Shown piece by piece: positions 3 through 43,642 of a DNA stretch of 64,000 bases. Numbering within the stretch: the first letter of the stretch is position 1; each line of letters begins with the position of its first letter. Source of the stretch: Chlorobiota bacterium. GTDB lineage: Bacteria; Bacteroidota; Bacteroidia; Bacteroidales; JAADGE01. The notes under the pieces were generated by a model that worked only from the letters and a program-made list of their open reading frames with translations, made no database searches and was not told the DNA's origin. A program made the translations under genes and the position numbers. The stretch covers positions 7 through 64,006 of the forward strand of contig JAADGE010000001.1 of assembly GCA_013152535.1 (NCBI GenBank). Reading direction: 5' to 3'.

Positions 3-3000
3 AAGGCATCATTACTTGAAATAACTACTGACAGTACTCGGATATATACTTCTGCAGCAACCGGTGTATCGGGCGGCTTTGCCGTCGGTCGTTATGCCTT
101 GGCAAAAGGGGGAAAGTCTTATGTTAAAAAATATTTTTTTACCGATTATGACAGCACTCGAGTTTATACCGACGGAACCGGTACCAAAGGCGTGTCCGGA
201 GGTTTTGCAGTAGGACGATATGCCTTGGCAAAAGGCAGCACACAAAATTATAATTTTTATACGGATGTTGACAGTACGCGTGTATTTACCGGCGGTTTAA
301 CCAAAGGCGTGTCCGGAGGTTTTGCAGTAGGAAGATATGCCTTGGCAAAAGGCAGTTCAGGAAATTATATGTATATGATTCCCGATAATTATTTTATAGG
401 CGATCAATCCGGCGAAGCACTCCAAAACAGCACATATACCGGAAAATACAATACATTTTTCGGCTATCAAACAGGTATGACTGATACTTCCGGCACGAGA
501 AATGTCCTTTTGGGGTATCAGGCAGGAACAAATATAACTGCCGGTTCCGATAATGTACTTTTAGGATATCAGGCAGGACGCGAATTAACTTCTGCCGGAA
601 ATAATATAAGCATAGGTACACAGGCAGGGTTTAATAACGATTCGGCAAGTAACAATATTTTTATCGGTAATCGTGCAGGTTTTAATCATATCGAATCTCC
701 GTCCGATTTTCCTGCCGATAATAATATTTATCTCGGAAATCAAGCCGGTTACGGACAATTCGGAATAGATTCTTCTTACAATAATATATTTATAGGAAAC
801 CAAGCCGGTTTTGCATCAGAAAGCGGCGGAACAAATGTGTTCCTCGGAAATCAAGCAGGGATGTCAAACAGAACCGGATCTCAAAACGTATTTCTCGGAA
901 ATGATGCCGGAATAAGTAATGAATCCGGAGACGCAAATGTTTTGCTTGGCGATTTTGCCGGAGAGTCTCTTGTATCGGGCAGTTATAATGTATTTCTAGG
1001 GAGACAAGCAGGTGACAGTCTGATTGACGGAGAATTAAATGTGTTTATCGGCGATTTAACAGGGCACGATATAAAACACGGTTACAAAAATACATTTATA
1101 GGAACCGATGCCGGTGGTAGTGCTTTGGGTGGGGATAATAATATTTTTATGGGAGTACAAGCCGGTTTTTGGCATAATTTCGGTAATGATAATGTATATC
1201 TTGGAAATAGTGCGGGTACGGGAGCAGAAACATTTATAGGAACAAATCAACGTAATGTTATACTCGGAGCAAATGCCGGGACTTTTATGGATGATGCAAT
1301 AGATAATGTTTTTATCGGACATAAAGCTGGTGAAGGAAGTATATCGGGAAGTGTTACAGGTGATTTTAATGTAGTTGTCGGAGAGCAGTCAGGCAATCAT
1401 ATTACTTCCGGGGAGAAGAATGTATTCCTCGGAAATGAAACCGGTTACAACAATACAGAAGGAAGCGGAAATATATTTTTAGGATACAGATGCGGCTTTG
1501 CAAATACAGTTGGTAATAATAATACTTTTATGGGCTTTCAGTCAGGGCGATCAAATACAAGCGGAACCGGAAATATTTTTTTGGGACCGTATACCGGTGA
1601 TGCAAATACGACAGGAAAACAAAATGCATTTATAGGGGTTGATGCCGGAAAATCTAATGTAGACGGAGAGCAAAATACTTTTATAGGATGGTCTGCAGGC
1701 GAAAATAATACATCAGGAGGTAATAATATCTTTATCGGCTCCGGTTCAGGTATTGCTAATACAACAGGACTTAGTAATATTTTTATCGGTACTTTAGCCG
1801 GTCAAGCTAATTTGGATACTCATTCCAATACATATATCGGTTCAAATGCCGGTTTGTGGAAAAAAGGCCAAGAAAACACTTATATTGGTGGTCAGGCCGG
1901 TTTTGGAAACGGGAATGGAGACGGAAATAATAATGTAGCAATAGGGAATCAAGCCGGATTTGCTTTTGGCGGTAATAATAATGTTTTTGTTGGAAATCAA
2001 GCGGGTTACAGAATTGTTGGTGACGGTAATGTACTTATCGGAAATCAAGCCGGTTATTATGAAACCGGGTCAAATACACTTTATATTGATAATTCTTCCA
2101 CATCTACACCCTTAATTTGGGGTGATTTTGCAAATGACAGTGTTAAAATTTTCAGCCATTTGAATATTAATAATGCTTATACTTTCCCGATTTCTGACGG
2201 AGCAAACGGTTATGTGCTTACAAGTGACGGATTGGGCAATGTGAGTTGGACATCCAAAAATGCAAATGCTGACGGAACAACAGCAAGCAACGGATTGTAT
2301 GAATCCGGTGTTGATGTGCGTCTCGGTGGTTCTTTAACGGAAAATACTACTGTTTCTCAATCTGATTACGGAATGGTTTATGATTTAACCGGTACAGGTG
2401 ATTTTGAAGTACGTGATAACGGTGCTACGGCTTTTTATATAGGAGATAACGGAAATGTGGGTATTGGCAGCATAAGTTCTCCTGATAATAAATTATATGT
2501 ATATCGTGCATCCGGAGATTACGGTGCCGGGAAATCAGATATTTATGCATTCAGATCCGGAACCTCGGGAGCAACAAACGGCGGGACTGCTTGGAGTTTT
2601 TCGGGTGCTGATGTTGCCGTAAAAGGATTTAACTATTATGGGAATCAATATACTGCAGGTGTTGCCGGTTACAGTTATCTTGACTATAACAACAGTGCTG
2701 CAATTATAGGAGCAATGCAAGACGGTACAAACAGCGGGATGTTGGCATATAAAGACAATAACGGTAAAATATGGGCAGGTTATTTTGACGGGGACTTAAA
2801 AGTTACGGGAGGAGTATCAATGAATATACAAACTGTTAATACTGATTTAACAATTACTGATACTGACGGAATTTATACTTTGTTAGCTTCAAATACAATA
2901 ACAATAACTTTACCGACTGCCGCTGATAATAAGGGCAGAATAATTATTATACAAAAAAATTCAGGAAACGCATCAACTGTTACAATTGACGGAGAAGGAA

Positions 3001-3104
3001 CGGAAACAATTAACGGTTTATCGTCTGTTAGCCTGACAAATATGTATACGACTTATACCTTGCAATCAGATGGTACGGAATGGAGAATTATAAGCCAAAT
3101 TTAA
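3..3104 (+). CDS. Large surface beta-helix repeat protein (adhesin- or tail-fibre-like), 5' end cut by window edge
   Basis: The frame is open from nt 3. Residues before the ORF-track TTG at 99 read KASLLEITTDSTRIYTSAATGVSGGFAVGRYALAKG, another copy of the downstream repeat, so the true start lies upstream of the window. About 30 tandem 17-aa units (N-[VIT]-F-[LI]-G-x-x-A-G...) are followed by a ~330-aa non-repetitive C-terminal region. Confidence 0.85.
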   Translation, partial: KASLLEITTDSTRIYTSAATGVSGGFAVGRYALAKGGKSYVKKYFFTDYDSTRVYTDGTGTKGVSGGFAVGRYALAKGSTQNYNFYTDVDSTRVFTGGLTKGVSGGFAVGRYALAKGSSGNYMYMIPDNYFIGDQSGEALQNSTYTGKYNTFFGYQTGMTDTSGTRNVLLGYQAGTNITAGSDNVLLGYQAGRELTSAGNNISIGTQAGFNNDSASNNIFIGNRAGFNHIESPSDFPADNNIYLGNQAGYGQFGIDSSYNNIFIGNQAGFASESGGTNVFLGNQAGMSNRTGSQNVFLGNDAGISNESGDANVLLGDFAGESLVSGSYNVFLGRQAGDSLIDGELNVFIGDLTGHDIKHGYKNTFIGTDAGGSALGGDNNIFMGVQAGFWHNFGNDNVYLGNSAGTGAETFIGTNQRNVILGANAGTFMDDAIDNVFIGHKAGEGSISGSVTGDFNVVVGEQSGNHITSGEKNVFLGNETGYNNTEGSGNIFLGYRCGFANTVGNNNTFMGFQSGRSNTSGTGNIFLGPYTGDANTTGKQNAFIGVDAGKSNVDGEQNTFIGWSAGENNTSGGNNIFIGSGSGIANTTGLSNIFIGTLAGQANLDTHSNTYIGSNAGLWKKGQENTYIGGQAGFGNGNGDGNNNVAIGNQAGFAFGGNNNVFVGNQAGYRIVGDGNVLIGNQAGYYETGSNTLYIDNSSTSTPLIWGDFANDSVKIFSHLNINNAYTFPISDGANGYVLTSDGLGNVSWTSKNANADGTTASNGLYESGVDVRLGGSLTENTTVSQSDYGMVYDLTGTGDFEVRDNGATAFYIGDNGNVGIGSISSPDNKLYVYRASGDYGAGKSDIYAFRSGTSGATNGGTAWSFSGADVAVKGFNYYGNQYTAGVAGYSYLDYNNSAAIIGAMQDGTNSGMLAYKDNNGKIWAGYFDGDLKVTGGVSMNIQTVNTDLTITDTDGIYTLLASNTITITLPTAADNKGRIIIIQKNSGNASTVTIDGEGTETINGLSSVSLTNMYTTYTLQSDGTEWRIISQI
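27..380 (+). repeat. Three tandem 38-40-codon repeats inside the 5' part of the surface protein
   Basis: Units start near 27, 141 and 261 (TDxDSTR[VI][YF]T...KGVSGGFAVGRYALAKG). Copies 2 and 3 share a near-identical DNA stretch: aaaggcgtgtccggaggttttgcagtagga[c/a]gatatgccttggcaaaaggcag. Confidence 0.85.
384..2092 (+). repeat. Intragenic array of ~30 x 51-nt (17-aa) beta-helix-type units
   Basis: Consecutive units such as NVFLGNQAGMSNRTGSQ / NVFLGNDAGISNESGDA / NVLLGDFAGESLVSGSY, read directly from the translation. Confidence 0.8.
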
Positions 3105-10095: not shown

Positions 10096-11478
10096 TTATC
10101 TTAAACTTACATTAACAGAACGTCCTGATTTTATTATAAAATGACGTTCTTTTGACATTGAAGTCGTTTTCATTCCTTCGGGACGATATACGGCAATATA
10201 ATGCCCGGGTTGTAAATAAATACTTTTCAAAGTTATTTGATTAATATTTTCAATTAATTTCACATCTCCTTTATCGACTTTATAAATACCTCCGAATCCT
10301 TTAGACGGCAAATAAATGTTTACTAAACCGGGTTGTTTTATTTTTACCGAAGTTGTTTTGCTTTGAGTAATTTTAACATTTTTAATATATATACGCGGTT
10401 TGCTTAAAATTTCCAAATCGTAAGTTCCGACAAGATATTTTATCGGTTGAAACATCTCCTGAACATTCAAAGTTTTCATATTTTTGTGTTTTCGGACAAT
10501 ACATTTTACACCTTTTAATTCCAAACCTCTTGCTTGAATTATATTCAATTTTCCTTGCGGTGTTTTTGCAATAATTTTATTATGCTTACCTTCTTTAATA
10601 ACTATATTCTCTTTCACAACAGGAGGGATTGTATGCACTTTCATTTTATAAATAATACTTGACGGAAGAACAATTGTATCCGGATTTCCTTTATAATTCA
10701 AAGTATGAATAAAGTCTTTAAATAACATTCCCGATTTTTGATTAAACAAACTGATATTTACATTTGTTTCAGTCGGTTTTCCCGTAATATCCAATAAATC
10801 AATTTCTGCCGATGTTCCGTATAGTGATTTACGAACAACCTTTTTCATAATTTCGGCAAATTGTTCTTCATTTGTTGCATTATAAAAACTACCGATGCAA
10901 TCAAAAGCATTTTTGAACTCCACATCCAAACCGATACCTATAATAAATGGTTTTATTGTAATACCCTTATTTTGAAGCATAAGGGCAATTTTACACGGGT
11001 CACCTTTGCATTCTTCTTTGCCGTCGGTAATCAGAATAATAATATTACGGCAATTATAACAAGGCGGAAAATCATCGCCTGCTTCTTCAAGCGAACGTGC
11101 AATAGGTGTTGTTCCTTTCGGTACGGTTACTCTTAACTTCTGTTTTATCTGTTCTGCATTATTCTTGCTGAAAGGAACTTCGAGATGTGTATCGTTGCAA
11201 TCCTGAGGCGGCATTTTACTTTTGTTTCCGTACATTCGCAAAGCCATTTCCAGATTATCAACATTTTTCAGACTGTCAACCATTTTAATAAGAAGATTTT
11301 TGGCAATATCTATCTTTCTTCCTGTCTTCCAATTGCCTGTCATACTGTATGATTCATCGAAAATGAACAAAATACGGGTTTTCAGCGGACTTCTTTTTAC
11401 TTGAGCATCAATACTTGAAACCAAGGAAATACTGAAAACAAGGAAAAACAGTAAAAATTTATTATTTAATCTTTTCAT
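10096..11478 (-). CDS. Secreted von Willebrand factor A (VWA) domain protein
   Basis: Signal peptide. MIDAS motif in ILFIFDESYSMTG (DxSxS), downstream ILITDGKE. C-terminal beta-rich extension. Confidence 0.8.
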   Translation of the reverse strand: MKRLNNKFLLFFLVFSISLVSSIDAQVKRSPLKTRILFIFDESYSMTGNWKTGRKIDIAKNLLIKMVDSLKNVDNLEMALRMYGNKSKMPPQDCNDTHLEVPFSKNNAEQIKQKLRVTVPKGTTPIARSLEEAGDDFPPCYNCRNIIILITDGKEECKGDPCKIALMLQNKGITIKPFIIGIGLDVEFKNAFDCIGSFYNATNEEQFAEIMKKVVRKSLYGTSAEIDLLDITGKPTETNVNISLFNQKSGMLFKDFIHTLNYKGNPDTIVLPSSIIYKMKVHTIPPVVKENIVIKEGKHNKIIAKTPQGKLNIIQARGLELKGVKCIVRKHKNMKTLNVQEMFQPIKYLVGTYDLEILSKPRIYIKNVKITQSKTTSVKIKQPGLVNIYLPSKGFGGIYKVDKGDVKLIENINQITLKSIYLQPGHYIAVYRPEGMKTTSMSKERHFIIKSGRSVNVSLR

Positions 11479-32892: not shown

Positions 32893-32993
32893 CTTTTAAA
32901 TTTTTATCGGAATAATATTACAAAAGTAGTTAATATCCGGTTTAAAGAAAGAAAAGTATTACAAATTATTTTGGTGATTTAGTTCTTATTTAT

Positions 32994-33100
32994 TTCACAC
33001 AGATTTCACGGATAATAAATTTTTGCTTCACACGGATTATACGGATTTCACAGGTTACTCCGGATAGTTGTTTTGTTTCACACGGATTTCACATATTACA
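32994..33100. repeat. Array of TTCACAC[A/G]GATTTCAC units / CACGGAT heptamers in the peptidase promoter region
   Basis: ttcacacagatttcacggat (32994), ttcacacggattatacggatttcac (33027) and ttcacacggatttcac (33076). Reverse-complement heptamer ATCCGTG is identical to the 5' end of the REP unit. Confidence 0.7.
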
Positions 33101-33218
33101 CAGAATACTATTTATTTATTGAAGTGTTTTATTCAGTTAAATTTTTTAAGTTCGGTTTTAATTTCATCAATTGTATCGCAAACCGATAAAATTAAATTTT
33201 TTAATTTTCCTCTGTTTA

Positions 33219-34257
33219 CTAAGTCTTGTATGTACCTGTAAACCGGGGAGTTTCTTCCGTCCAAAATTTCTTATTCATAAAAATCATTGGGCTTGCATAG
33301 CCGAAACTCAGGTAGTGGTTTTGTGTTATTTCCTGAAAAATTTCTTGTATGGTTCCGGCACTTCCGGGTGAAAATATAATACCGCCTTTGGCAATGGTGA
33401 GCAATCCGTCTTCGCGAACGCTGTTGGCAAAATATTTGGCAATTTTTGTCGCAAATGGTGTGGGAGGTTCGTGTCCGTAGAGCCACGTAGGAATTCCGAG
33501 ACTTTCGTATTTGTTATTGTTCGGAAATTTGTCAATTATCTGTATCGCAGTATCCATCCAGAGTTTATCTTTGTACACAGGTGCTGTGTCTAGTATGTCA
33601 AAAGCATTTTTTAAATCGTCTGAATTTCTGCCGGCAAACCAAGCACCGACGTGGGTTGCTTCCATTGCACCCGGTCCGCCGCCGGATGTCATCAGATAAC
33701 CGTTTTCGGTTAATTCTTTTGAAAGTTCGACAACCATTTTATAATCTTCGGTATTTCTTGCTAAACTGTGACCGCCCATAATTGCAACCACTTTTTTTTC
33801 GTCGTATTTCGATAAAAAATCGTAAAGAGCATCTGTAATTGAATGGTCGTGCAGGCGGCGGGCAAGGGTTTCCTTTATGCTGTCAGTTTCTTTCCCGGTT
33901 TCAATAAAGTGTTTGTAAACAATTTTGTCAAATGTTAGTTCGTATGTTTCCGGTTTTCCGAGTTCGTATTCGCCGTATAAATCGTTCTTGTCATATAATC
34001 GGTTGGGGTAGATATTATAAGGAACATTTAATTTCGGAAATATGTAATTTTCTTCTTCAATATGATATTTTACTTTTTCGTTCATCGTGGTTCATCGTGC
34101 AGCCAAGAAAGAGACAGTTGCTGAAATAAAATCGAAAAAAATCTTCTTCAAATTCAGTTAAATCAACATCTTGAAAAGCAACTTTATCAATAATATCTCC
34201 CGGTTTTCTGAAAAGGTGCTTCAGTTCTTTTTGGGTTTCGATTTCGGCGTATTTCAT
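33219..34257 (-). pseudogene. LOG-family (TIGR00730/PpnN-like nucleotide N-glycosidase) protein split by a +10-nt frameshift
   Basis: LOG motifs SGGGPGAMEA and PGSAGTIQE lie in 33219..34085. A 66-aa ORF (34057..34257) overlaps the start in another frame. Removing one copy of the 10-bp duplication at 34080-34099 gives a continuous ...FSNCLFLGCTMNEKVKYHIEEE... Confidence 0.8.
34080..34099. repeat. Perfect 10-bp tandem duplication gttcatcgtg x2 (frameshifting lesion in the LOG-family gene)
   Basis: Read directly: tttttc gttcatcgtg gttcatcgtg cagcc. Confidence 0.95.
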
Positions 34258-34682
34258 TTTGTTCAGATTTAAATGCTTATATTAATATTCAGCAAAGCAT
34301 AAATTATGCCGCTGACTGCCGCCAAAGGAGATAATAATGCAAGAATGCTTAAAACCAAACCGATAATTGCAAATGCTTTACCTCTAGTTTGTCTTTATAA
34401 ACCCGAAACAGCAAAAATGAAACTTTTTAAAGCGTATTTTTCAATTTTGGGCTTATTATCGTATTTTTTTCAGAACAGTTCGGCTTGGCGTTTATTGATA
34501 TTGCATTATTTTTTGTTGTAAAATGTTTATCTGTTTCTGTACCGAACAGATTTACGGATATATACAGAAATTTTAATGTTTTCATTTTTCTATGTTTTTA
34601 TGATTTATTACAAATTTACATAATCGAAATGAAAATATTAAAACATATCCGGATTATTAAAAACTTGCAGTATGAACTTTAT

Positions 34683-34708
34683 CCGTGCCACGCTGCAGCG
34701 TGGCACGG
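34683..34708 (+). repeat. REP-like 26-bp perfect palindrome, copy 1
   Basis: ccgtgccacgctgcagcgtggcacgg with flanks tat...ta, 19 nt downstream of the stop of the 34728..37289 gene. Confidence 0.9.
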
Positions 34709-34727
34709 TATTATAAATGATTATTAA

Positions 34728-37289
34728 TCAATATGTCCATTTTTTTGTATAAGAATTAAAGGGGCTGATACCGATTTTAAAAGTAAAATTGGTATTTGAT
34801 AGTGTATTATCAGCTGTTACGGCATAAATTCCCAATCTGAAAAGTTGGTCTTTTATTCTGATTACACGCTCCAATCCGGCAAACATTTCAAAATGATAAA
34901 ACCTGTCTTTCGGAATGCTCATAGTTCCGACACCGCCGGCAAGTGAAATTTTCAAATAACTGATTAACGGAATTTTGTTTAAAATTGCCCCATTAAAGTG
35001 GTGAATGTAATTGGCCCGAAAAAATTCATTATTGGTATTCAGCGTAGGACCGAGCAATTGAAAAGATTTTAATGGGTCGGAAAATATAATAATGTCGGAA
35101 CCTCTGAAATATTTGTATTCTAACAGTCGCAAATGTTGTTTATTGGTAAATATTCCTGCCGTTATCTGCCATCTTGAAGAACCGAAACGTGCCAATTGAT
35201 GTTCCGCTTTTGCTCCGATTTCAAAATAATCAAAATTTACTTCGCTGCCTAAAATATCGGGAATGCCTTTTCGGTATGTGAAAAACAGTTCAGGATAATC
35301 TTTACCAATAATTATTTTTTTATTGCCTTTAATCAGGTATTTTTGGTTTATTCTATATGTTAACTTTAGCTTTAGTTCACTTTTGGTATATCGCTTAAAA
35401 TCAATAGGTTCATTAAGTTCTCCGAAAATTTCTTTTGACCATTCGGACAGTTGCAAGTCGGATATGGGATTTTGGTCGGAATAGAGTAAGGTTAATTCGG
35501 CAAACAATCCGTTAATTATTTCAATTCGTTGTCGAATTTGTATCGACTTTGTATTCACATAATTACTGCGGCTGAATATTTGCTCGAAAGAGGCATAATT
35601 GTTTATTAATTCATAAGTATTTCCGACATCAATAAAGGTTCGGATAAATTTTTTCGGGTAATACGTTAATCCGATGCCGAGTTTTCCTTTAAGGTCTTTG
35701 TTATTAAAACCGTAATCTATTGCTTCGGTTGTTTCTAAAAGCATTCCGTTATGAAACTCTTTGTTGAAATACAGAGGAAGTTTATGTCGGTATCCGCCGA
35801 TTCCGAACGGAACAAGCTGTTCTAAAATTCCGCCTATGTGAAATTCCGTTCCCGTATAATGATTTTTATGTCCCCAGCCGGCAATTGGTGTGTACCAATA
35901 CAGTCGGTTAAAAATTGAATCTTGTTTGTCAAGAAATTCATTACTTTTGTAATAACGCTGCAGACTGTCGGTTTTTGAGATGAATTTTAACTCCCCTGGT
36001 TTCAGCGAAAGCAAACGATTTTTTGCCCAATATACAGAGTCTTTTTCAAATGCGTCTTTTTCGTATGTTTTTATTTCATTATTAAATATTTTTTTATTTA
36101 TCTCAATATTAACACTGTAATTTTGGTATTTAATTTTAGTTTCTCCGAGAATATTTTTTTTGCCGTCTTTTACGGTGTAAATAATATTTAATTTTGACGG
36201 CAGATAAATACCGGTTTTAATTTGTTTGCAGTTGATAATAATTCTGAAATTTTTATAAAGCATTAATGCCGACGGATTTATTGATAAATCGGCTGCCGCA
36301 AGTGCCCAAGTACTGTCTTCTATAAAAATATTTCCTTTGAATAAAGCGGCATTCTTGTTTATCGGCAGTACACTGAGTTTGAATATTTTCTTACCGTTTT
36401 CGGTAAATGTTTCAATGTATTTGTACTTATAATTTAGAAATGAACTTGAGGCAATCGGTGATTTTAAAGGTTGGTTGCATAATTGCGGAATATCAAGAAG
36501 ATTTTTATAAAAATTGAAAGTTGCCGCTGTATTTTCAGTTTCAAACAAATACAGATTTGATGCGGAATATTGTTTCGGCGTAATTTCATCATCGGGAATG
36601 CCTGCTTGTACGGTAATTGATCTGCCGAGAGGTTTTTGTTCCGAAAAATCGTGAAATGCTTTGATGCTTTCTTTGTATTTATCCGGATTTTCGTAATACA
36701 CTTCCGCAATGTATTCAATAAGATTTAGTTTGTCTTTTTTAAGGTAAGAATTAATATCGTGATTTTTTTTTGAAATTGTGTTCGTTACCGATGTCGTATC
36801 TCCGTGTTTTATCTTAAAAGTATCTTTTGCCCGGTATTCCTTTTCAAAAGAAGTTTTAACATAAATTTCACATTGATAGTTTTTTACATTATTTAAGTAA
36901 TCTTTTCGTTTATCACGAACATTTTTCATAATACGTTTTGCTCGGTCGATTTTATCGGCAACAATTTCGACTTCTTCAATAGACGAAACAGCTCTTTTCA
37001 GTTTAATATTAATTTTCAGATATTGATTTCCGGTTAATTTTATTTTCTTTTCAAACTTTTCATATCCGAGAAATGAATATATTAAGGTATAAGTTCCGGC
37101 TTTAAGTTCCAGAAAATATTTTCCTTCAAAATTTGCAGAAACACCTGTGGTAGAATTCTTTATAAAAACGGAAGCGAAGGGCAGGGGAGTGCCTGTTTCA
37201 TCTGTTATTGTTCCGGAGATAACGGCGGAGTTTGAAATTTTACCGTTAAAGAGTGCAACAAGAAGTAACAGAAGAAATTTAAATTTCAT
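34728..37289 (-). CDS. CarboxypepD_reg-like domain outer-membrane protein (DUF5686-like)
   Basis: Signal peptide. N-terminal segment ISGTITDETGTPLPFASVFIKNSTTGVSANFEGKYFLELKAGTYTLIYSFLGYE. An ~750-aa beta-rich body without a TonB plug motif. Confidence 0.7.
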   Translation of the reverse strand: MKFKFLLLLLVALFNGKISNSAVISGTITDETGTPLPFASVFIKNSTTGVSANFEGKYFLELKAGTYTLIYSFLGYEKFEKKIKLTGNQYLKINIKLKRAVSSIEEVEIVADKIDRAKRIMKNVRDKRKDYLNNVKNYQCEIYVKTSFEKEYRAKDTFKIKHGDTTSVTNTISKKNHDINSYLKKDKLNLIEYIAEVYYENPDKYKESIKAFHDFSEQKPLGRSITVQAGIPDDEITPKQYSASNLYLFETENTAATFNFYKNLLDIPQLCNQPLKSPIASSSFLNYKYKYIETFTENGKKIFKLSVLPINKNAALFKGNIFIEDSTWALAAADLSINPSALMLYKNFRIIINCKQIKTGIYLPSKLNIIYTVKDGKKNILGETKIKYQNYSVNIEINKKIFNNEIKTYEKDAFEKDSVYWAKNRLLSLKPGELKFISKTDSLQRYYKSNEFLDKQDSIFNRLYWYTPIAGWGHKNHYTGTEFHIGGILEQLVPFGIGGYRHKLPLYFNKEFHNGMLLETTEAIDYGFNNKDLKGKLGIGLTYYPKKFIRTFIDVGNTYELINNYASFEQIFSRSNYVNTKSIQIRQRIEIINGLFAELTLLYSDQNPISDLQLSEWSKEIFGELNEPIDFKRYTKSELKLKLTYRINQKYLIKGNKKIIIGKDYPELFFTYRKGIPDILGSEVNFDYFEIGAKAEHQLARFGSSRWQITAGIFTNKQHLRLLEYKYFRGSDIIIFSDPLKSFQLLGPTLNTNNEFFRANYIHHFNGAILNKIPLISYLKISLAGGVGTMSIPKDRFYHFEMFAGLERVIRIKDQLFRLGIYAVTADNTLSNTNFTFKIGISPFNSYTKKWTY

Positions 37290-37353
37290 TATTTGTTTTT
37301 ACGGTTACGGAATAATAACGTATAAATTTGTGATTTGTTACATTTTATATATT

Positions 37354-37401
37354 ATCCGTGCCGCTACATAATGAACCGTGCCACGCTGCAGCGTGGCACG
37401 G
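37354..37401 (-). repeat. REP-like palindrome copy 2 (37376-37401, inverted orientation) preceded by a truncated REP half (37354-37368)
   Basis: atccgtgccgctaca-taatgaa-ccgtgccacgctgcagcgtggcacgg-at. Confidence 0.9.
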
Positions 37402-37427
37402 ATTTGATTACGGGTTTGGTTAATATG

Positions 37428-38321
37428 TTATTCCAAATCTTCTAAAATATCTTTCGTAAATTTTGCCAAAGGTCGTTTATGAACTTCATCGTCCGAGATA
37501 TAATTACCGAAAATAATTCCTTTCAGTTGCTCAAAATTTTTAAATAAAGTTCCTTCATACTGTTTATAAAGAGTTTCAAGGTAGTCGTCCGAATACATAT
37601 ATTGTTTTTTTATGAGTTCAAGAGCAATGTCCGAATGTTTTTCGTAGATATCATTTAATCTGAAAGTTGAAATTGTATTTTTTGTTTTAATATCTTCATT
37701 ATCGTTTTCTTTAAGTTCAATTCTTATTCCTTTCGTTGAATGATAAAAACTCGGTTTAACAATTTTTAAATGAAATTTTGCACGTGAATTAAAATCATCT
37801 TCATAGGGGTGCAAGTGTTTTTCTTCGTAAAAATCCTTTGTTGTTTTAAATTTGCTGTTACATATTGAACAAGACGGAATTAAGTTGTAAAAAGATAATG
37901 ACAGAAACGGATATCGTGATTTATCATAAAAATGGTCAAAAGTTGCCAAAACTCTTGCTTTTTGTTTTTTTGTGTCTTCAAATTTAAATATATATTCTCT
38001 GTTGCAATAGGGACAAACAGTAATCTCTAAATTATTGATAAAATCAGAACCAAATTTATTTATAAATTTAGTATAATGATTTTTAATAATTTTTTTTGCG
38101 AATATAAATTTTGCTTTATTATAGTTATTTTTTTCATATTTATACAGCATCTTATTTAACTCAACAGGTCTTGCTTTTATTAAAAATTCAAAATCTCCAT
38201 TATAAATATCTTTGAAAAATAAAAAAGACTGTCTTATTCTATTATTATTGATAATAGATTTTACTTTTTTATAATGTTCATTTACTATATCATCAATATT
38301 TGAATGTGTAATAACTATCAT
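37428..38321 (-). CDS. Zinc-finger HNH nuclease (PtuB-like / HNH_5-TIGR02646-like) with N- and C-terminal extensions
   Basis: Core C103-P-Y-C106 ... D129-H130 ... N146-L ... C151-S-I-C154-N155-x-K (VCPYCNREY...TFDHFYDKSRYP...YNLIPSCSICNSKF). Very AT-rich coding sequence. Confidence 0.7.
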   Translation of the reverse strand: MIVITHSNIDDIVNEHYKKVKSIINNNRIRQSFLFFKDIYNGDFEFLIKARPVELNKMLYKYEKNNYNKAKFIFAKKIIKNHYTKFINKFGSDFINNLEITVCPYCNREYIFKFEDTKKQKARVLATFDHFYDKSRYPFLSLSFYNLIPSCSICNSKFKTTKDFYEEKHLHPYEDDFNSRAKFHLKIVKPSFYHSTKGIRIELKENDNEDIKTKNTISTFRLNDIYEKHSDIALELIKKQYMYSDDYLETLYKQYEGTLFKNFEQLKGIIFGNYISDDEVHKRPLAKFTKDILEDLE

Positions 38322-38338
38322 TATTATTTAAGGTTTAT

Positions 38339-38364
38339 CCGTGCCACGCTACAGCGTGGCACGG
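38339..38364 (+). repeat. REP-like palindrome copy 3 (centre variant ctACag)
   Basis: ccgtgccacgctacagcgtggcacgg, located between the ATPase stop (38381) and the HNH start (38321). Confidence 0.9.
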
Positions 38365-38380
38365 TTTTAAAGTAACAAAA

Positions 38381-40348
38381 TTATTTTTTATCGTCTTCTA
38401 ACAAATTAATTTTTTCTTGTATTTCTGTTATTTGTTTTTTTAAATCATCAATATCGTCAAGTTTTCCCAATCGTTTATTATTCAGCATTTTTTGAAGTTG
38501 ATTTTTTATAATGGGTTCTCCTATGATGTTAATGATTTTTTGTGCTTCATCGTTGTTTTTTATTTTGCTTTCTTTTTTATCGTTAAGATAATCAATAACA
38601 TCTTGTATTTTTTCTTCGGCAAATTTACCGATTAAACCGTCTTGCATAAAAAACGCATTTGAAAATAATGTATGAATATTTGCCCCGAAAGTTTCTTTTT
38701 GTTCTATTTCGGGGATTACTTTGCAATTTCCTGTTTTCTTATCTTTTTCAAGAAACATTATGTGTTTTTCCGGTAAATCAGAAACAATGAAGGGAGAGTG
38801 TGCCGTAATGATTAATTGAACGGGTTTATCAAAAATTAAAGGTAAAACTTTTGTGAGCAAATAAATATTTTGTTTTGACCATTCCGGATGTAAATATAAA
38901 TCTATTTCATCAATAAAAACTAGGTATTTTTCAAAATTAATTTTTCCATTATTTTTTTCTTTTTGCACTTCAATATCTATTAATTCTTTTGCTTCAAGCA
39001 TTTTTGAAAATAAAGTAATAAATGCTAATTCTCCGGAACTTAACCCCCAGTTAAAATACAAGTAATTATTAATTTCAGGGTTATATTTTAACGTTTCTTT
39101 ATAAATCTTAATAATTTCACTAAAAAACTCCCTTGGGATTTCAAAGTTTATAAAGTCTTCTGATATATTATTAAATATAATTTTATCTGTTTTTATTTTT
39201 TTTATAAAATGCAACATTTTCGAAAAAGCATTTAAATTATTTTCATCAAAAAAGGTTTTACTTTCTTTCAAAAATATTTCATAAGTAGCTGTTTGATTAT
39301 TGATTAAATCATAAACAGCATTAATATATTCAAAATAATCTGTAAGTAAACGAGAGTCTGCTTTTATCAGTGTTTCTAGTTCTTTTTTCTTTTCTTTAAA
39401 CGTATTATTTTTAATAGAATTAAATAAATCTCTAATATCTGTAAGTAGATTTCTAATTTGGTTTTTCTCTGAATCTGTATTGTTATCAGGATTTAAATTA
39501 TTAAAAATTGATTTTACTTTAATTTCAAAGGATAAAACAAAAAAAATAGAAAGTAATACTATTATTAATTGCTCTTGTTTAGTATCTGTTTGTATTTTTC
39601 TATATATTTCATAATATATCTGCGATTCTCCTACCTGTAAATTTGTGTTCAATACAAATATGTTTGATGATATTGTTATGTTTTTTATTCCGTTTTTTAT
39701 TCCGACATATTTTAATATATGTTTTGAAAGTTCCGATTTATTAAGGAATTTATCAATACTTATAAGTTCTTTAAGCCAATATTCTCTTAAAACATAAAAG
39801 TTGTTTCTATTAGAAATTTTCTCTTCAATTTTTCTTAAAATATAATTTGTCGAAACATTTATTTGTGTCGAATAAATTCCTTTTGGGTTAAAATATGTTA
39901 TATTCGGACTAAAAGTATTTGATAGATATATACTTGCAATGCTTGGTTCAGGTAATTCTTTATTTAGTCCTCTTTCAGTAAAGAAAGGAATACATTTAAA
40001 CGGAGTGTGTATAGAAATTTTATTATGTAAAATAATAATTTCATTTTGTAAGTTTAAGACAACAAAATATTTTAAATGATAATTTCTTATCCATTTTGAT
40101 AAAAATTCTAATAAACTGCTCTTTCCGCTTCCGTTTTTTCCGACAATTCCGGTAATATTTACAATATTATCGCCGAAAAAATTATCGGGTAAATCATATT
40201 TGTTTGGGGTATATTTTAGTTCACCGCCGGTTATTTTTTCGTTGTCGTCTTCTTTTGGGATAAACTCAAAATAATGTTTCGGGCTGAAATTAAAACCTTG
40301 TAGTTTGATGTTTTTATAATTTTCTATCCAAATGTATAATAGTTCCAT
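38381..40348 (-). CDS. ABC/SMC-type ATPase (AAA_15/AAA_21-like, PtuA-like)
   Basis: Walker A GKNGSGKSS (aa 70-78), then a ~350-aa helical insert. Signature-like LSSGELAF, Walker B YLVFIDEIDLYLHPEW, H-loop ITAHSPFIVSD. Confidence 0.75.
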   Translation of the reverse strand: MELLYIWIENYKNIKLQGFNFSPKHYFEFIPKEDDNEKITGGELKYTPNKYDLPDNFFGDNIVNITGIVGKNGSGKSSLLEFLSKWIRNYHLKYFVVLNLQNEIIILHNKISIHTPFKCIPFFTERGLNKELPEPSIASIYLSNTFSPNITYFNPKGIYSTQINVSTNYILRKIEEKISNRNNFYVLREYWLKELISIDKFLNKSELSKHILKYVGIKNGIKNITISSNIFVLNTNLQVGESQIYYEIYRKIQTDTKQEQLIIVLLSIFFVLSFEIKVKSIFNNLNPDNNTDSEKNQIRNLLTDIRDLFNSIKNNTFKEKKKELETLIKADSRLLTDYFEYINAVYDLINNQTATYEIFLKESKTFFDENNLNAFSKMLHFIKKIKTDKIIFNNISEDFINFEIPREFFSEIIKIYKETLKYNPEINNYLYFNWGLSSGELAFITLFSKMLEAKELIDIEVQKEKNNGKINFEKYLVFIDEIDLYLHPEWSKQNIYLLTKVLPLIFDKPVQLIITAHSPFIVSDLPEKHIMFLEKDKKTGNCKVIPEIEQKETFGANIHTLFSNAFFMQDGLIGKFAEEKIQDVIDYLNDKKESKIKNNDEAQKIINIIGEPIIKNQLQKMLNNKRLGKLDDIDDLKKQITEIQEKINLLEDDKK

Positions 40349-40375
40349 TTTGTTTTGTTTTAATTTGTTTTTCTA

Positions 40376-40401
40376 TCCGTGCCACGCTGCAGCGTGGCAC
40401 G
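40376..40401 (+). repeat. REP-like palindrome copy 4
   Basis: ccgtgccacgctgcagcgtggcacgg with flanks tat...tt, 16 nt after the RAYT stop. Confidence 0.9.
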
Positions 40402-40417
40402 GTTTGCTCACTTTAAA

Positions 40418-41008
40418 CTACCAAATGTGTCTTAATTCATTATCATCCGGTTTATACAATGTCTGATATTCCAAATTATCTTTATCGTAATTTATAATTT
40501 CTTGTGCCAAATTTATATTACATAAACTTCCTGTTCGTAAACCTGCATGGTCTTTAAAAGAGGAGAATTGCCAATCGGAAACTTTGGATACAAGTTTAGC
40601 TTCAAACGGATTTCTGTGAATATAGTGAAAACAGGTTACGGCATATTTGTTTGTATTAACTTGGTACAGACATTTTGATTTTGTATTTTGTCTGAACAGA
40701 GAACCGCTTAAATTTTCTTGTTTGTTAATTGCCTGTGAATATTGGCTTAACAAAAGCCGTAAATTTTCCGAAAATTGACTTGCTTCTTGTTTGCGTTTTT
40801 CTGCTTGTTTAATTGTTCTGTCGTTTGCAGCAATCATAATGTGAAAATGATTAGGCATTAAACACCATGCGAGAATATCGGAAACCGGCATTAAATATTT
40901 TCTGATTTTTTGAATAAAAAACAGATAATTTTCATGCGAGAAGAATATTTTTTGATATTGATTCCCCGTATTGTAAATATGATATATTTTGTTTTCTTCA
41001 AAAAACAT
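40418..41008 (-). CDS. REP-associated tyrosine transposase (RAYT; IS200/IS605-like HUH Y1 enzyme)
   Basis: HUH motif in LMPNHFHIMI (H54-F-H56). Catalytic Tyr motif FHYIHRNP. Size of 196 aa. Flanked by inverted copies of the palindrome. Confidence 0.8.
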   Translation of the reverse strand: MFFEENKIYHIYNTGNQYQKIFFSHENYLFFIQKIRKYLMPVSDILAWCLMPNHFHIMIAANDRTIKQAEKRKQEASQFSENLRLLLSQYSQAINKQENLSGSLFRQNTKSKCLYQVNTNKYAVTCFHYIHRNPFEAKLVSKVSDWQFSSFKDHAGLRTGSLCNINLAQEIINYDKDNLEYQTLYKPDDNELRHIW

Positions 41009-41022
41009 ATTGCTGTTATTAA

Positions 41023-41048
41023 CCGTGCCACACTACAGCGTGGCACGG
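41023..41048 (-). repeat. REP-like palindrome copy 5 (variant, inverted orientation)
   Basis: ccgtgccacactacagcgtggcacgg with flanks aa...at, 9 nt after the citF stop and 14 nt upstream of the RAYT start. Confidence 0.85.
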
Positions 41049-41057
41049 ATACATCAA

Positions 41058-42617
41058 TTACTCAAACTTCTTCAATTTCCTGACAACGTCAATTACCGTT
41101 CCGTCAACCCATTTTATTGCGGCGATTATTTCGTCGGTAAATTCGGGTTTTTGCGGTTTACCGCATATTTTTTCGGCTTCGTCTTTCAGTTCTTGTATGG
41201 TTTTTATCGGTAAACCGGAATTTTTGCTTGCTTCGATTAAATCTTTTCGTAAAGGATTTATCGCAATACCGCGCTCGGTAACGATAACGTCAATAAGCTC
41301 GCCCGGTCCGACAAGTGTTGTAACTTCATCTACAATAACCGGAATACGATTGCGGAAAAGAGGCAAGGGGAGGATAACGGTTTTGCTGAACAAGCAGTTT
41401 TGCCAACCGCCGATACCGTGCATCAATAAACCGTCTGAATGTGTAACCACGTTGCCGTTAAAATTTACGTCAACTTCCGTTGCTCCGAGAATAACAACAT
41501 CAACCATTCCGGCAAAGTTGCCTTTGCCGTGGTAGTTGTAGCTCGTAAACGGGCTTGTCCAAGTGTGGTTCGGGTTTTCACGCATTGAACGTACGCCTTC
41601 GAGGTCGAAAGTTTGTCCGTCAAGAATGTAGTCAATTAAACCATCTTCGAGCATTTCTACGAGATATTTGTTGCTTCCGCCGCGTGCAAAACGTGCTTTT
41701 ATGCCTTTTTGCCGCATAATGTCGCCGAAATATTTGCTTACGGCAAGTGATGTTCCGCCGGCACCTGTTTGGAAGGAAAATCCGTTTTTTATAATGCCGG
41801 TTGCTTCACAAAATTTTGCGGTCATTTCGGCAAGCAGTAACCTGTCAGGGCTCTTGGTTATTTGCGTTGTTCCCGAAACGATTTTATCCGGGTCGCCTGC
41901 TTTATCTACTTTTACTACGTAATCAACGTAATTTCCTTGAATTTGCCACGGCACGCAGGGAAAAGACACAAGATTATCCGTAACAACTATTACTTTATCG
42001 GCATATTGCGAGTCGGCAAGGGCAAAACCGAGCAGCCCGCTTGCCGATGTACCGGTAAGTCCGTTTGCGTTTCCGAAAGGGTCGGCGGTTCCGGCGGCAA
42101 TAATTGCGATGTCTATTTTCACTTCACCATCTTGCACGGCTTGATAGCGTCCGCCGTGCGAACGAAGTATTGCCGTTCCTTTCATTTTTCCTTCGGAAGC
42201 AAATCGTCCGAGAGGTCCGTTCATACTGCCTTCTATACGTTGTATTGTTCCGTCTTCAAGATAAGGAATAAGATGTTCGTGGCAGGGAAACGATGCCGAA
42301 GGAAACCAGCGTAAATATTTTATACCTAATCCTTTGGCAATGTCAAAAACTTGGTTCATAATTAAATCGCCGTTTCTGAAATGATGATGAGAAGAAATTG
42401 TCATACCGTCTTTAAGTCCGGCTTTTATAAGGGCTTCTTTAATGTTATTTACAAGTTTGTTTCCGTCCGGCGGATAATCGGCATTTGTAGAAATTATTGG
42501 TGCGTGTTTTCTGCCTTCGGGTTTATATTTTCCTACACCTTGATACGGAATTTGTGTTTCTCCGTTAACTTCGGTCGGGACTATTCGTCCTGCTGCGTTT
42601 TTTATTAGTTTTGACAT
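41058..42617 (-). CDS. citF: Citrate lyase alpha subunit / citrate CoA-transferase family protein
   Basis: 519 aa with CitF-type motifs SSHHHFRNGD, LRSHGGR and QTGAGG. No citD or citE next to it. Confidence 0.75.
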   Translation of the reverse strand: MSKLIKNAAGRIVPTEVNGETQIPYQGVGKYKPEGRKHAPIISTNADYPPDGNKLVNNIKEALIKAGLKDGMTISSHHHFRNGDLIMNQVFDIAKGLGIKYLRWFPSASFPCHEHLIPYLEDGTIQRIEGSMNGPLGRFASEGKMKGTAILRSHGGRYQAVQDGEVKIDIAIIAAGTADPFGNANGLTGTSASGLLGFALADSQYADKVIVVTDNLVSFPCVPWQIQGNYVDYVVKVDKAGDPDKIVSGTTQITKSPDRLLLAEMTAKFCEATGIIKNGFSFQTGAGGTSLAVSKYFGDIMRQKGIKARFARGGSNKYLVEMLEDGLIDYILDGQTFDLEGVRSMRENPNHTWTSPFTSYNYHGKGNFAGMVDVVILGATEVDVNFNGNVVTHSDGLLMHGIGGWQNCLFSKTVILPLPLFRNRIPVIVDEVTTLVGPGELIDVIVTERGIAINPLRKDLIEASKNSGLPIKTIQELKDEAEKICGKPQKPEFTDEIIAAIKWVDGTVIDVVRKLKKFE

Positions 42618-42989: not shown

Positions 42990-43642
42990 TTTTTATTTTT
43001 TAATAAAGAATTATCTAAGTACTTATTTTTATATTCGTTTATAAATAAATAACATATTGCTGTTATTATAATTCCTGTAATTGATCCGGCAAGTGTATCA
43101 CCGAGAAAATGCCACGATAAATAAATTCTTGAATATCCGACCAATAAGGCAATTATAAGAAAAATAAACTTCAGAAACTTATTTTTTACGATAACAGCCG
43201 ATAAGAAAAAAATTGCAAATGCTGCTGCCGTATGTCCTGAAGGAAAAGAAAAAAAATTTGCAGGCTCTGCTCCTTTAATAATGTACAGCTGATAATTGCC
43301 CTTATAATGTTCTTGAAAAAACATTACAGGTCTTAAACTTCCTGAATATACAGTGTGTTTTAAGATTTGTACAACTAAACTTGTGATAATCAAAGAAACA
43401 GCTGAAATTAAAGCCCAACGGTATTTAATAAACAGTAAAACTACTGTAAAAACAGCTGCAAATATTCCGTCGCCTAACCAAGTCCAATATTTAAATAAAA
43501 AGTCAAAAAACAGAATATGTCGTGAGTTTATAAAAATATGAATATCTGTTTTGCTGAAGAATAATAAACAAGCAGAAGAAATCAATAATATTGACAGATA
43601 AGGAATTATAAAAATGATATTATCTTTGAATAAGTTTTTCAT
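42986..43642 (-). CDS. PAP2-family membrane phosphatase
   Basis: Multi-TM protein with PAP2 motifs PSGHTAAAF and SRIYLSWHFLGD. Its stop overlaps the downstream start by 4 nt (ATGA). Confidence 0.8.
   Translation of the reverse strand: MKNLFKDNIIFIIPYLSILLISSACLLFFSKTDIHIFINSRHILFFDFLFKYWTWLGDGIFAAVFTVVLLFIKYRWALISAVSLIITSLVVQILKHTVYSGSLRPVMFFQEHYKGNYQLYIIKGAEPANFFSFPSGHTAAAFAIFFLSAVIVKNKFLKFIFLIIALLVGYSRIYLSWHFLGDTLAGSITGIIITAICYLFINEYKNKYLDNSLLKNKK

Follow-up and report, generated by a model that had tools for sequence, protein, structure and literature searches.

A 26-nt palindrome, CCGTGCCACGCTGCAGCGTGGCACGG, occupies five consecutive intergenic gaps in a 64-kb stretch of DNA (hereafter the window) from a genome of the Chlorobi/Bacteroidota group, and two of its copies enclose, in mutually inverted orientation, the gene of a 196-aa protein with the motifs of an HUH transposase with a single catalytic tyrosine (Y1). 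The locus is very probably a REPtron, consisting of a single-copy, domesticated HUH/Y1 transposase (40418-41008) like those known as REP-associated tyrosine transposases (RAYT, TnpAREP), and of its cognate 26-nt repetitive extragenic palindromic (REP) element. As such it is a REP/RAYT system of known type and a well-documented addition from this group of bacteria, in which three properties are notable: a perfect palindrome devoid of the GTAG tetranucleotide, clear co-variation of such palindromes within a large clade of the Bacteroidota/Chlorobi group, and a candidate defence cassette associated with the locus.

The palindrome and its copies in the window

The palindrome is rich in G+C (73% vs 31.7% in the window) and was matched five times when up to three mismatches were allowed; at the same tolerance not one of 100 dinucleotide-preserving shuffles contained a match (five observed, none expected by chance). 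All five copies are intergenic and lie 9-26 nt past the stop codon of a minus-strand gene (Table 1), with spacings of 2693, 963, 2038 and 646 nt between successive copies. Even at seven mismatches no further copy appeared in the window, and half-arm matches with up to three mismatches remained there at chance level, except for a truncated half-site, TATCCGTGCCGC, next to copy 2, which is complementary to the 3' arm of that copy plus its flank (GGCACGGAT).

These features had been described beforehand by a reading of the bare nucleotide sequence (hereafter the sequence-only reading), and the greater part of that description held: the palindrome in five consecutive gaps (zero to two mismatches per copy in the present count), the half-site near copy 2, the distances to minus-strand stop codons, the identities of the five genes concerned (DUF5686, HNH, ATPase, HUH/Tyr protein, CitF), the lack of other copies, and the mutual inversion of copies 4 and 5 around a 196-aa protein with HFH and YIHRNP motifs. 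The starts which it gave for four copies (34683, 37376, 38339 and 41023) are exact, while its value of 40376 for copy 4 had to be corrected to 40377. As to orientation, the flanks agree with its assignment for copies 3 and 4, which read (T)AT-core-TT, and for copies 2 and 5, which are the inverse; copy 1 reads TAT-core-TAT and can be assigned from its 5' TAT alone.

As single-stranded DNA the palindrome forms a hairpin whose stem measures 11 bp and whose loop measures 4 nt (-15.7 kcal/mol, z = -7.5), and as RNA its hairpin reaches -22.2 kcal/mol. Across 23 copies the flanks follow two forms, TAT-core-T in 16 and A-core-T in the remaining 7.

Two further repeats were recorded close to these elements. 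Between the start of a peptidase gene (32892) and the stop of a SLOG gene (33219), a cluster of direct repeats of the type 'TTCACACGGAT(T)' extends over 32990-33110; within 80 nt of the minus strand it contains the 7-mer ATCCGTG of the REP foot three times, with no palindrome there, and it may be either what is left of REP feet or a set of regulator sites unrelated to them. A direct repeat of 18 nt, AACATATTGCTGTTATTA, stands in two exact copies, one at 41004-41021, where it covers the start codon of the RAYT gene together with the spacer towards REP copy 5, and one at 43051-43068 inside a PAP2 open reading frame (ORF); in AT-rich DNA it is borderline for chance.

The RAYT-like protein

The protein carries the HUH motif as HFH (residues 54-56) and the tyrosine motif as YIHRNP (129-134, with Tyr129 as the predicted catalytic residue). 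Among 37 aligned homologues H54, F55, H56, Y129, I130 and N133 were invariant and P134 was invariant or nearly so. The NCBIfam profile NF047646 (REP_Tyr_transpos, REP-associated tyrosine transposase) was matched with an E-value of 5.6e-14 over positions 6-146 of its 146. When a profile of the 37 homologues was compared with the sequences in the PDB, TnpAREP of Escherichia coli (4ER8) was the sole match, HFH being aligned to HMH and YIHxNP...DWxFSSF to YIYINP...DWPFSTF. Foldseek, run with an AlphaFold (AF2) model (pLDDT 94.4), likewise placed 4ER8 first (E 4.4e-9, TM 0.65), and the TnpA proteins of IS608, ISDra2 and IS200 followed well behind (E ~3e-4 to 1e-3). The predicted fold is hence nearer to TnpAREP than to TnpA of the IS200/IS605 family.

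A database search returned 2,089 homologues at E <= 0.001. Among the best 120 nearly all measure about 190-230 aa, those with an organism name are mostly from metagenome-assembled genomes (MAGs) of Bacteroidota, and some sources label them 'REP element-mobilizing transposase RayT'. An identical protein, NOZ33693.1, belongs to a 'Chlorobi bacterium' MAG, where a contig of 256 kb encodes it. The window holds one copy of the gene. Its clade displays a mixed signature of NHFH, LF(Q/R)Q, YIH(Q/R)NP and a Ser-Ser extension, and the residues additional to 4ER8 are located between beta3 and alphaC.

REP-RAYT-REP architecture in homologous loci

Around the RAYT gene of the window, copies 4 and 5 form an inverted repeat with arms of 46 nt that are 80% complementary. 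The neighbourhoods of seven homologues with 46-72% identity to the window protein were compared, and in six of them the gene is flanked on both sides by long palindromes (25-33 nt) of the locus's own. The closest (L092, 72%) has ATCGTGGCACGTTGCAACGTGCCACGAT on both sides, accompanied by three tandem half-site units per side in mirror symmetry; the next (L097, 66%) has TCGTGCCACGATTATCGTGGCACGA twice upstream, and downstream a single full copy together with a half-site. Palindromes of 33 nt built on CCGTGCCACGG occur in L100 (48%), and palindromes of 29-31 nt, each locus with its own, stand on both sides in L098 (Tangfeifania, 49%), L101 (50%) and L103 (46%). In L093 (59%) decayed remnants only were found.

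The REPs of the three homologues with 72, 66 and 48% identity have kept the arms CGTG-N-CACG. In their alignment three of the 11 stem pairs are changed on both sides (C-G to G-C, U-A or A-U), 98.5% of the cells are paired, and pairing was lost when the partner columns were slid. Because of these compensatory changes and the nearly complete pairing, the hairpin can be said to be conserved, with a sequence that drifts along with the RAYT, as would be expected of a cognate pair of enzyme and substrate.

Two of the orthologues could be followed over several contigs. The one designated P0009 (13 contigs) showed a single gene neighbourhood in all four places listed, and P0102 (21 contigs) did so in all three places listed, the rest having been collapsed as similar in both cases. 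Both RAYTs are single-copy and vertically inherited.

The arrays of the 72% orthologue (palindrome and three half-sites at L092 1746-1837 and 2457-2562) have smaller counterparts in the pairs of half-site and full site in L097 and in the window (37353-37401), and these arrangements suggest that partial duplications are generated at the hairpin. In L101 the REP of that genome is also found in frame within the RAYT gene itself (10202-10230), between the HUH and tyrosine motifs, where it encodes SSDDLESSD.

Dispersal of the palindrome beyond the window

For the sequence-only reading, absence of the palindrome from the rest of the genome would have spoken against a REP/RAYT family. The palindrome is not confined to this locus, and about 15 additional distinct sites were found in related MAG and metagenome contigs. 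They are intergenic save for overlaps with two doubtful ORFs, and most lie 9-41 nt past a stop codon. Several copies stand at contig ends, as is to be expected of a dispersed repeat, which breaks assemblies. A loose scan of species-representative genomes (CCGTGCCAC-N8-GTGGCACGG) yielded chance hairpins in other, nearly all G+C-rich, genomes at 75 of the 80 returned loci; the genuine element was present, as the exact palindrome, in two MAGs of low G+C content, Chlorobiota CSMAG_422 (three contigs) and Bacteroidales GMC4.metabat2.5 (two contigs). The exact palindrome was recovered from 11 contigs of five metagenomes in a scan of 241 million records. One decayed copy with five mismatches was detected in L085.

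Two syntenic contigs allow single sites to be compared. In L090 the order is DUF5686, an extra gene, HNH, REP, ATPase, with the REP in the same spacer as copy 3 of the window; its block, GTTTAT-core-GGTTTTAA, is one loop base apart from that of the window, and identity in the coding DNA of the adjoining ATPase gene is 84%. In L002 citF is followed by a REP 11 nt past its stop, the immediate flanks of this REP do not align to those in the window, and the following gene is a different one. The sites after citF and between HNH and ATPase are thus occupied also in relatives at 79-88% nucleotide identity.

On another contig (L091, 339-1236) two palindromes of the window type, 872 nt apart and of the same orientation by their flanks, were observed around a small gene of a GIY-YIG nuclease.

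Comparison with known systems

With E. coli TnpAREP (RAYT, YafM; PDB 4ER8) the window protein shares the HUH motif and a single tyrosine in a YIxxNP helix, followed by DWxFS(S/T)F, and the locus shares the arrangement of a single-copy gene within inverted intergenic hairpins that are dispersed elsewhere as well. However, the two proteins are only about 20% identical, the one described here is by our count some 17 residues longer between beta3 and the position of the conserved Trp94, and this tryptophan is replaced by Phe. The palindrome differs from the REPs of E. coli in being perfect over 26 nt, with neither a bulge nor a 5' GTAG; doublets of the type of bacterial interspersed mosaic elements (BIMEs) or REPINs were not seen, and copy number appears low. 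In the REPIN/RAYT system of Pseudomonas fluorescens (groups 2 and 3; Bertels & Rainey, 2011) the mobile unit is reported to be a REPIN, in which two inverted REPs stand about 70-110 bp apart, and to reach hundreds of copies. That system resembles the present one in that a vertically inherited, single-copy RAYT is flanked by cognate extragenic repeats, but here the copies are singlets, and pairs resembling doublets bracket whole genes (the RAYT gene; the GIY-YIG gene in L091). Elements of the IS200/IS605 family such as IS608 and ISDra2 have the HUH/Y1 fold and presumably the recognition of single-stranded hairpins in common with this locus; they are multi-copy and autonomous, with distinct hairpins at the left and right ends (LE/RE) and often a tnpB gene, none of which was seen here.

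Within the subclasses of TnpAY1 proteins distinguished by Quentin et al. (2018; PMC6006769), the candidates for the nearest relatives are 2.6 and 2.4, as judged by motifs. Subclass 2.6 (group 5 of Bertels) occurs mostly in Bacteroidetes, has the motif YIH[QN]NP and is flanked by 'atypical secondary structures' without GT[AG]G, found by manual detection and described as 'weaker secondary structures' (PMC6006769). The tyrosine motif, the Ser-Ser extension, the bacterial hosts and the lack of GT[AG]G in the REPs agree with it, whereas the palindrome described here is stronger. Proteins of subclass 2.4 (group 4 of Bertels) measure about 194 aa and have NH[IFV]H as their HuH motif and a variable beta3-alphaC segment; their REPs in Runella and Solitalea are perfectly palindromic 'double-foot' elements of 28 nt, and REP insertions within the gene are described for the subclass (PMC6006769). 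Length, HUH motif, variable segment and perfect palindromes are matched by our clade, as is the in-frame REP in the RAYT gene of the homologue L101, but the GTAG/CTAC feet are missing. From both subclasses the clade is set apart by its mixed signature, with NHFH, LF(Q/R)Q in place of WQ, and YIH(Q/R)NP. Subclass 2.1, defined by NH[YF]H, FQ and Y[IV]HLNP, has no REPs (PMC6006769); plasmid proteins of Proteobacteria with a 2.1 signature are 21-23% identical to the window RAYT. A strong association with REPs was reported for groups 2 and 3 only, with an intermediate 16-mer abundance in group 5 (Bertels et al., 2017), and canonical REP tags were given as GTAG or CGTC (Di Nocera et al., 2013).

Assessment of the REPtron and of alternative explanations

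Several observations speak against the identification as a REP/RAYT system. The match to NF047646 scores 52.2 bits, below the curated cut-off of 80 (subclass 2.1-like plasmid proteins of Proteobacteria, with 75-77 bits, likewise fall under it), and Pfam Y1_Tnp reaches 14.4 bits against a cut-off of 23 (E 0.04), so that no Pfam match above threshold was obtained for the protein. Phe stands in place of the conserved Trp (LFxQ), and a 5' GT[AG]G or CGTC foot tag is absent from the flanks of all 23 copies. REPIN doublets are lacking in the window, the sole close pair being the half-site and full site at 37353-37401. Among the 241 million metagenome records, only the 11 contigs mentioned have the exact sequence, so that the REP family may be low-copy. 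None of 16 other REP-bearing contigs, which are short, contains a RAYT gene; orthology of the insertion after citF in the window and in L002 is uncertain, to judge from the flanks; and catalysis and mobilisation by the window protein would be attributed to it by analogy with other systems. The sequence-only reading had called the locus a classic REP-RAYT-REP unit with a domesticated Y1 transposase. Motifs, profile, fold, synteny, dispersal and family architecture bear out the unit, and 'classic' is an overstatement, because neither the 5' GT[AG]G tag nor REPIN doublets are present; the doublet organisation for which it had proposed to look does not exist among the window copies, which are 646-2693 nt apart.

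That the HUH protein might be the self-moving TnpA of an autonomous insertion sequence of the IS200/IS605 type, with the palindromes as its LE/RE and solo ends, is suggested by the common HUH/Tyr chemistry and fold (the Foldseek matches to IS608, ISDra2 and IS200), by the weak match to Y1_Tnp and by the hairpins bracketing the gene. The sequence-only reading had itself pointed to this outcome as one that would overturn its view. Yet TnpAREP is clearly the better match by structure and by sequence, both flanking hairpins are one palindrome in inverted orientation and not distinct sub-terminal ends, and the window has the gene only once, while its orthologues on 13 and 21 contigs keep to one gene neighbourhood each in every place listed. 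Next to the gene stand an ATPase gene and citF instead of tnpB, and the repeat is found solo at many sites without a RAYT gene, all of which leaves this explanation highly unlikely. Somewhat better, and nonetheless improbable, is the case for hairpins serving the host as Rho-independent terminators, stabilisers of mRNA 3' ends or insulators, next to which the HUH gene would stand by accident. All five window copies follow the stops of co-oriented genes at 9-26 nt, most others do so at 9-41 nt, and the RNA hairpin is very stable (-22 kcal/mol); in E. coli, REPs reportedly stabilise upstream mRNA and affect translation when located within about 15 nt of the stop codon (Newbury, 1987; Liang, 2015). 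Against this, a loose terminator scan was passed by copy 2 only, no copy is followed, as transcribed, by a proper T-tract, and copies occur in both orientations. Moreover, the same sequence stands on both sides of the HUH gene, as is the case with the own, co-varying palindromes of six of the seven homologues, an arrangement not to be expected of a purely regulatory element. A regulatory role is compatible with the REPtron as a secondary, exapted one. Least credible of all is an interpretation of the palindromes as double-stranded sites of a dimeric regulator or as sigma-54-type promoter elements. It could draw on the perfect dyad, on the position of copies 3-5, which precede the next start codon by 14-28 nt, and on the heptamer TGGCACG in the 3' arm GTGGCACGG (e.g. 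34700-34708), a sequence that equals the -24 element of sigma-54 promoters. But a -12 TTGC at the required spacing is missing from every copy, the space between hairpin and start codon is too small for a promoter, REPs also occur between convergent genes and in varied contexts, and the dyad sequence tracks the RAYT lineage and not the neighbouring genes. A sigma-54 promoter was accordingly rejected for want of a properly spaced -12 element, the heptamer match being probably coincidental.

An integron attC array and a CRISPR array were discarded as well, on account of the repeats being perfect 26-nt palindromes, of their irregular spacing of 646-2693 nt and of the ordinary, partly conserved genes in between; integrase or cas genes were not found near the REP copies. 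No viral contig matched the locus, which thus gives no sign of phage origin, and scans for Rfam families and tRNAs returned no matches.

Proposed mechanism and clustering of the REPs

The mechanism proposed for the REPtron is modelled on what has reportedly been established biochemically for E. coli TnpAREP and IS608 (Ton-Hoang, 2012; Messing, 2012). As in the 'peel-and-paste' transposition of IS200/IS605 elements, the enzyme would attach to the hairpin where DNA is single-stranded, for instance at the replication fork, and Tyr129 would cleave beside the hairpin foot with a metal held by His54 and His56. Rejoining of the strand would then seed or maintain REP copies in intergenic DNA, where they would persist mainly just past stop codons and genes stay intact; their position probably reflects sites that tolerate insertion. 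RNA hairpins at such sites might influence 3'-end stability or translation termination, a role that is plausible from the comparison with the REPs of E. coli. Owing to the absence of the GT[AG]G tag and the presence of Phe at the position of the conserved Trp, recognition by this RAYT would have to differ from the E. coli paradigm. With GTAG and the Trp-Gln residues that bind the guide both missing, other contacts must be used; candidates for them are the arms CGTG-N-CACG and the TAT that is conserved in the flank.

If placed at random, five copies would fall into five consecutive gaps out of about 45 with p ~3e-5 (our arithmetic); the other ~57 kb of the window are free of REPs. This clustering near the RAYT gene is likely to be due to a preference of the enzyme for action in cis and to relaxed constraint or insertion tolerance around a foreign cassette of low G+C content, which do not exclude each other. 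It is not simply a recent burst, because diverged relatives have REPs at two of its five sites, and in one of these relatives no RAYT gene lies next door. The suggestion of the sequence-only reading that the family is active, or was so recently, therefore goes further than these sites allow, and the identity of three of the window copies could equally reflect conservation.

A more far-reaching idea is that REPs delimit gene-sized modules which the RAYT excises and pastes as single-stranded DNA, so that the pair of defence-like genes described below would be a REP-bounded cassette, captured or mobilised. The pair lies between copies 2 and 4, and copy 3 separates its two genes. We regard this idea as unlikely; if it were true, the REP-bracketed GIY-YIG gene in L091 would be a second example. 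In a weaker, related version, perfect palindromes without GTAG may be kept for very long by selection or by RAYT-driven homogenisation. From one relative to another the REP sites hardly differ, where the proteins encoded beside them share only 62-87% identity.

Neighbouring genes and further features of the window

The genes around the REPs are listed in Table 1. The ATPase and the HNH protein match the PADLOC profiles of the candidate defence system PDC-M62 over their full length (A, E 5.6e-87; B, E 5.3e-70, respectively), and weaker matches of the pair to PtuA and PtuB of Septu were obtained. Because its G+C content is only 22-27%, compared with 31-44% in the neighbours and 31.7% in the window, the pair looks as if it had been acquired horizontally. 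It is context, outside the REP/RAYT machinery, and the 59-nt spacer between its two genes holds a REP in the window and in the relative L090.

Table 1: Copies of the REP palindrome and genes at the locus, with positions in the window.
Feature	Position	Strand	Description
REP copy 1	34683..34708		exact, flanks TAT/TAT; 19 nt past DUF5686 stop codon
DUF5686 with CarboxypepD_reg domains	34728-37289	-
Truncated REP half-site TATCCGTGCCGC	37353..37364	+	11 nt before copy 2
REP copy 2	37376..37401		exact, inverted (AA-core-AT); 26 nt past HNH stop, 86 nt before DUF5686 start
HNH protein	37428-38321	-	PDC-M62B match
REP copy 3	38339..38364		1 mismatch (loop G>A); in 59-nt ATPase/HNH spacer, 16 nt past ATPase stop
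AAA ATPase	38381-40348	-	PDC-M62A match
REP copy 4	40377..40402		exact; 15 nt past RAYT stop, left arm of REP-RAYT-REP unit
HUH/Tyr protein, 196 aa (RAYT-like)	40418-41008	-
REP copy 5	41023..41048		2 mismatches, inverted vs copy 4; 9 nt past citF stop, 14 nt before RAYT ATG
CitF	41058-42617	-

Between a SLOG/LOG-like gene and REP copy 1 a gap of 597 nt (34086-34682) contains no convincing gene; its small ORFs have no Pfam match, and the region has no Rfam match. At the beginning of the window, a 1001-aa ORF (99-3104) includes at least 13 degenerate repeats of 38 nt (motif ...AATATTTTTATCGGAAATCAAGCCGGT...); it has no Pfam match and probably encodes a repetitive protein of the surface or adhesin type.

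Significance

Work on REP/RAYT systems has so far been concerned almost entirely with Proteobacteria, and the cases in Bacteroidetes were noted as 'atypical secondary structures' by manual inspection. The locus and its relatives constitute a clean, large clade, for which over 2,000 proteins with a length near 195 aa were matched at E <= 0.001. For annotation it is of consequence that REPs behind stop codons around a candidate defence cassette break assemblies and can pass for terminators. With one exception, every RAYT examined is accompanied by a long, perfect palindrome of its own, which lacks the GTAG guide and whose stems co-vary, and the clade is a good model for the recognition of hairpins without the canonical guide tetranucleotide.

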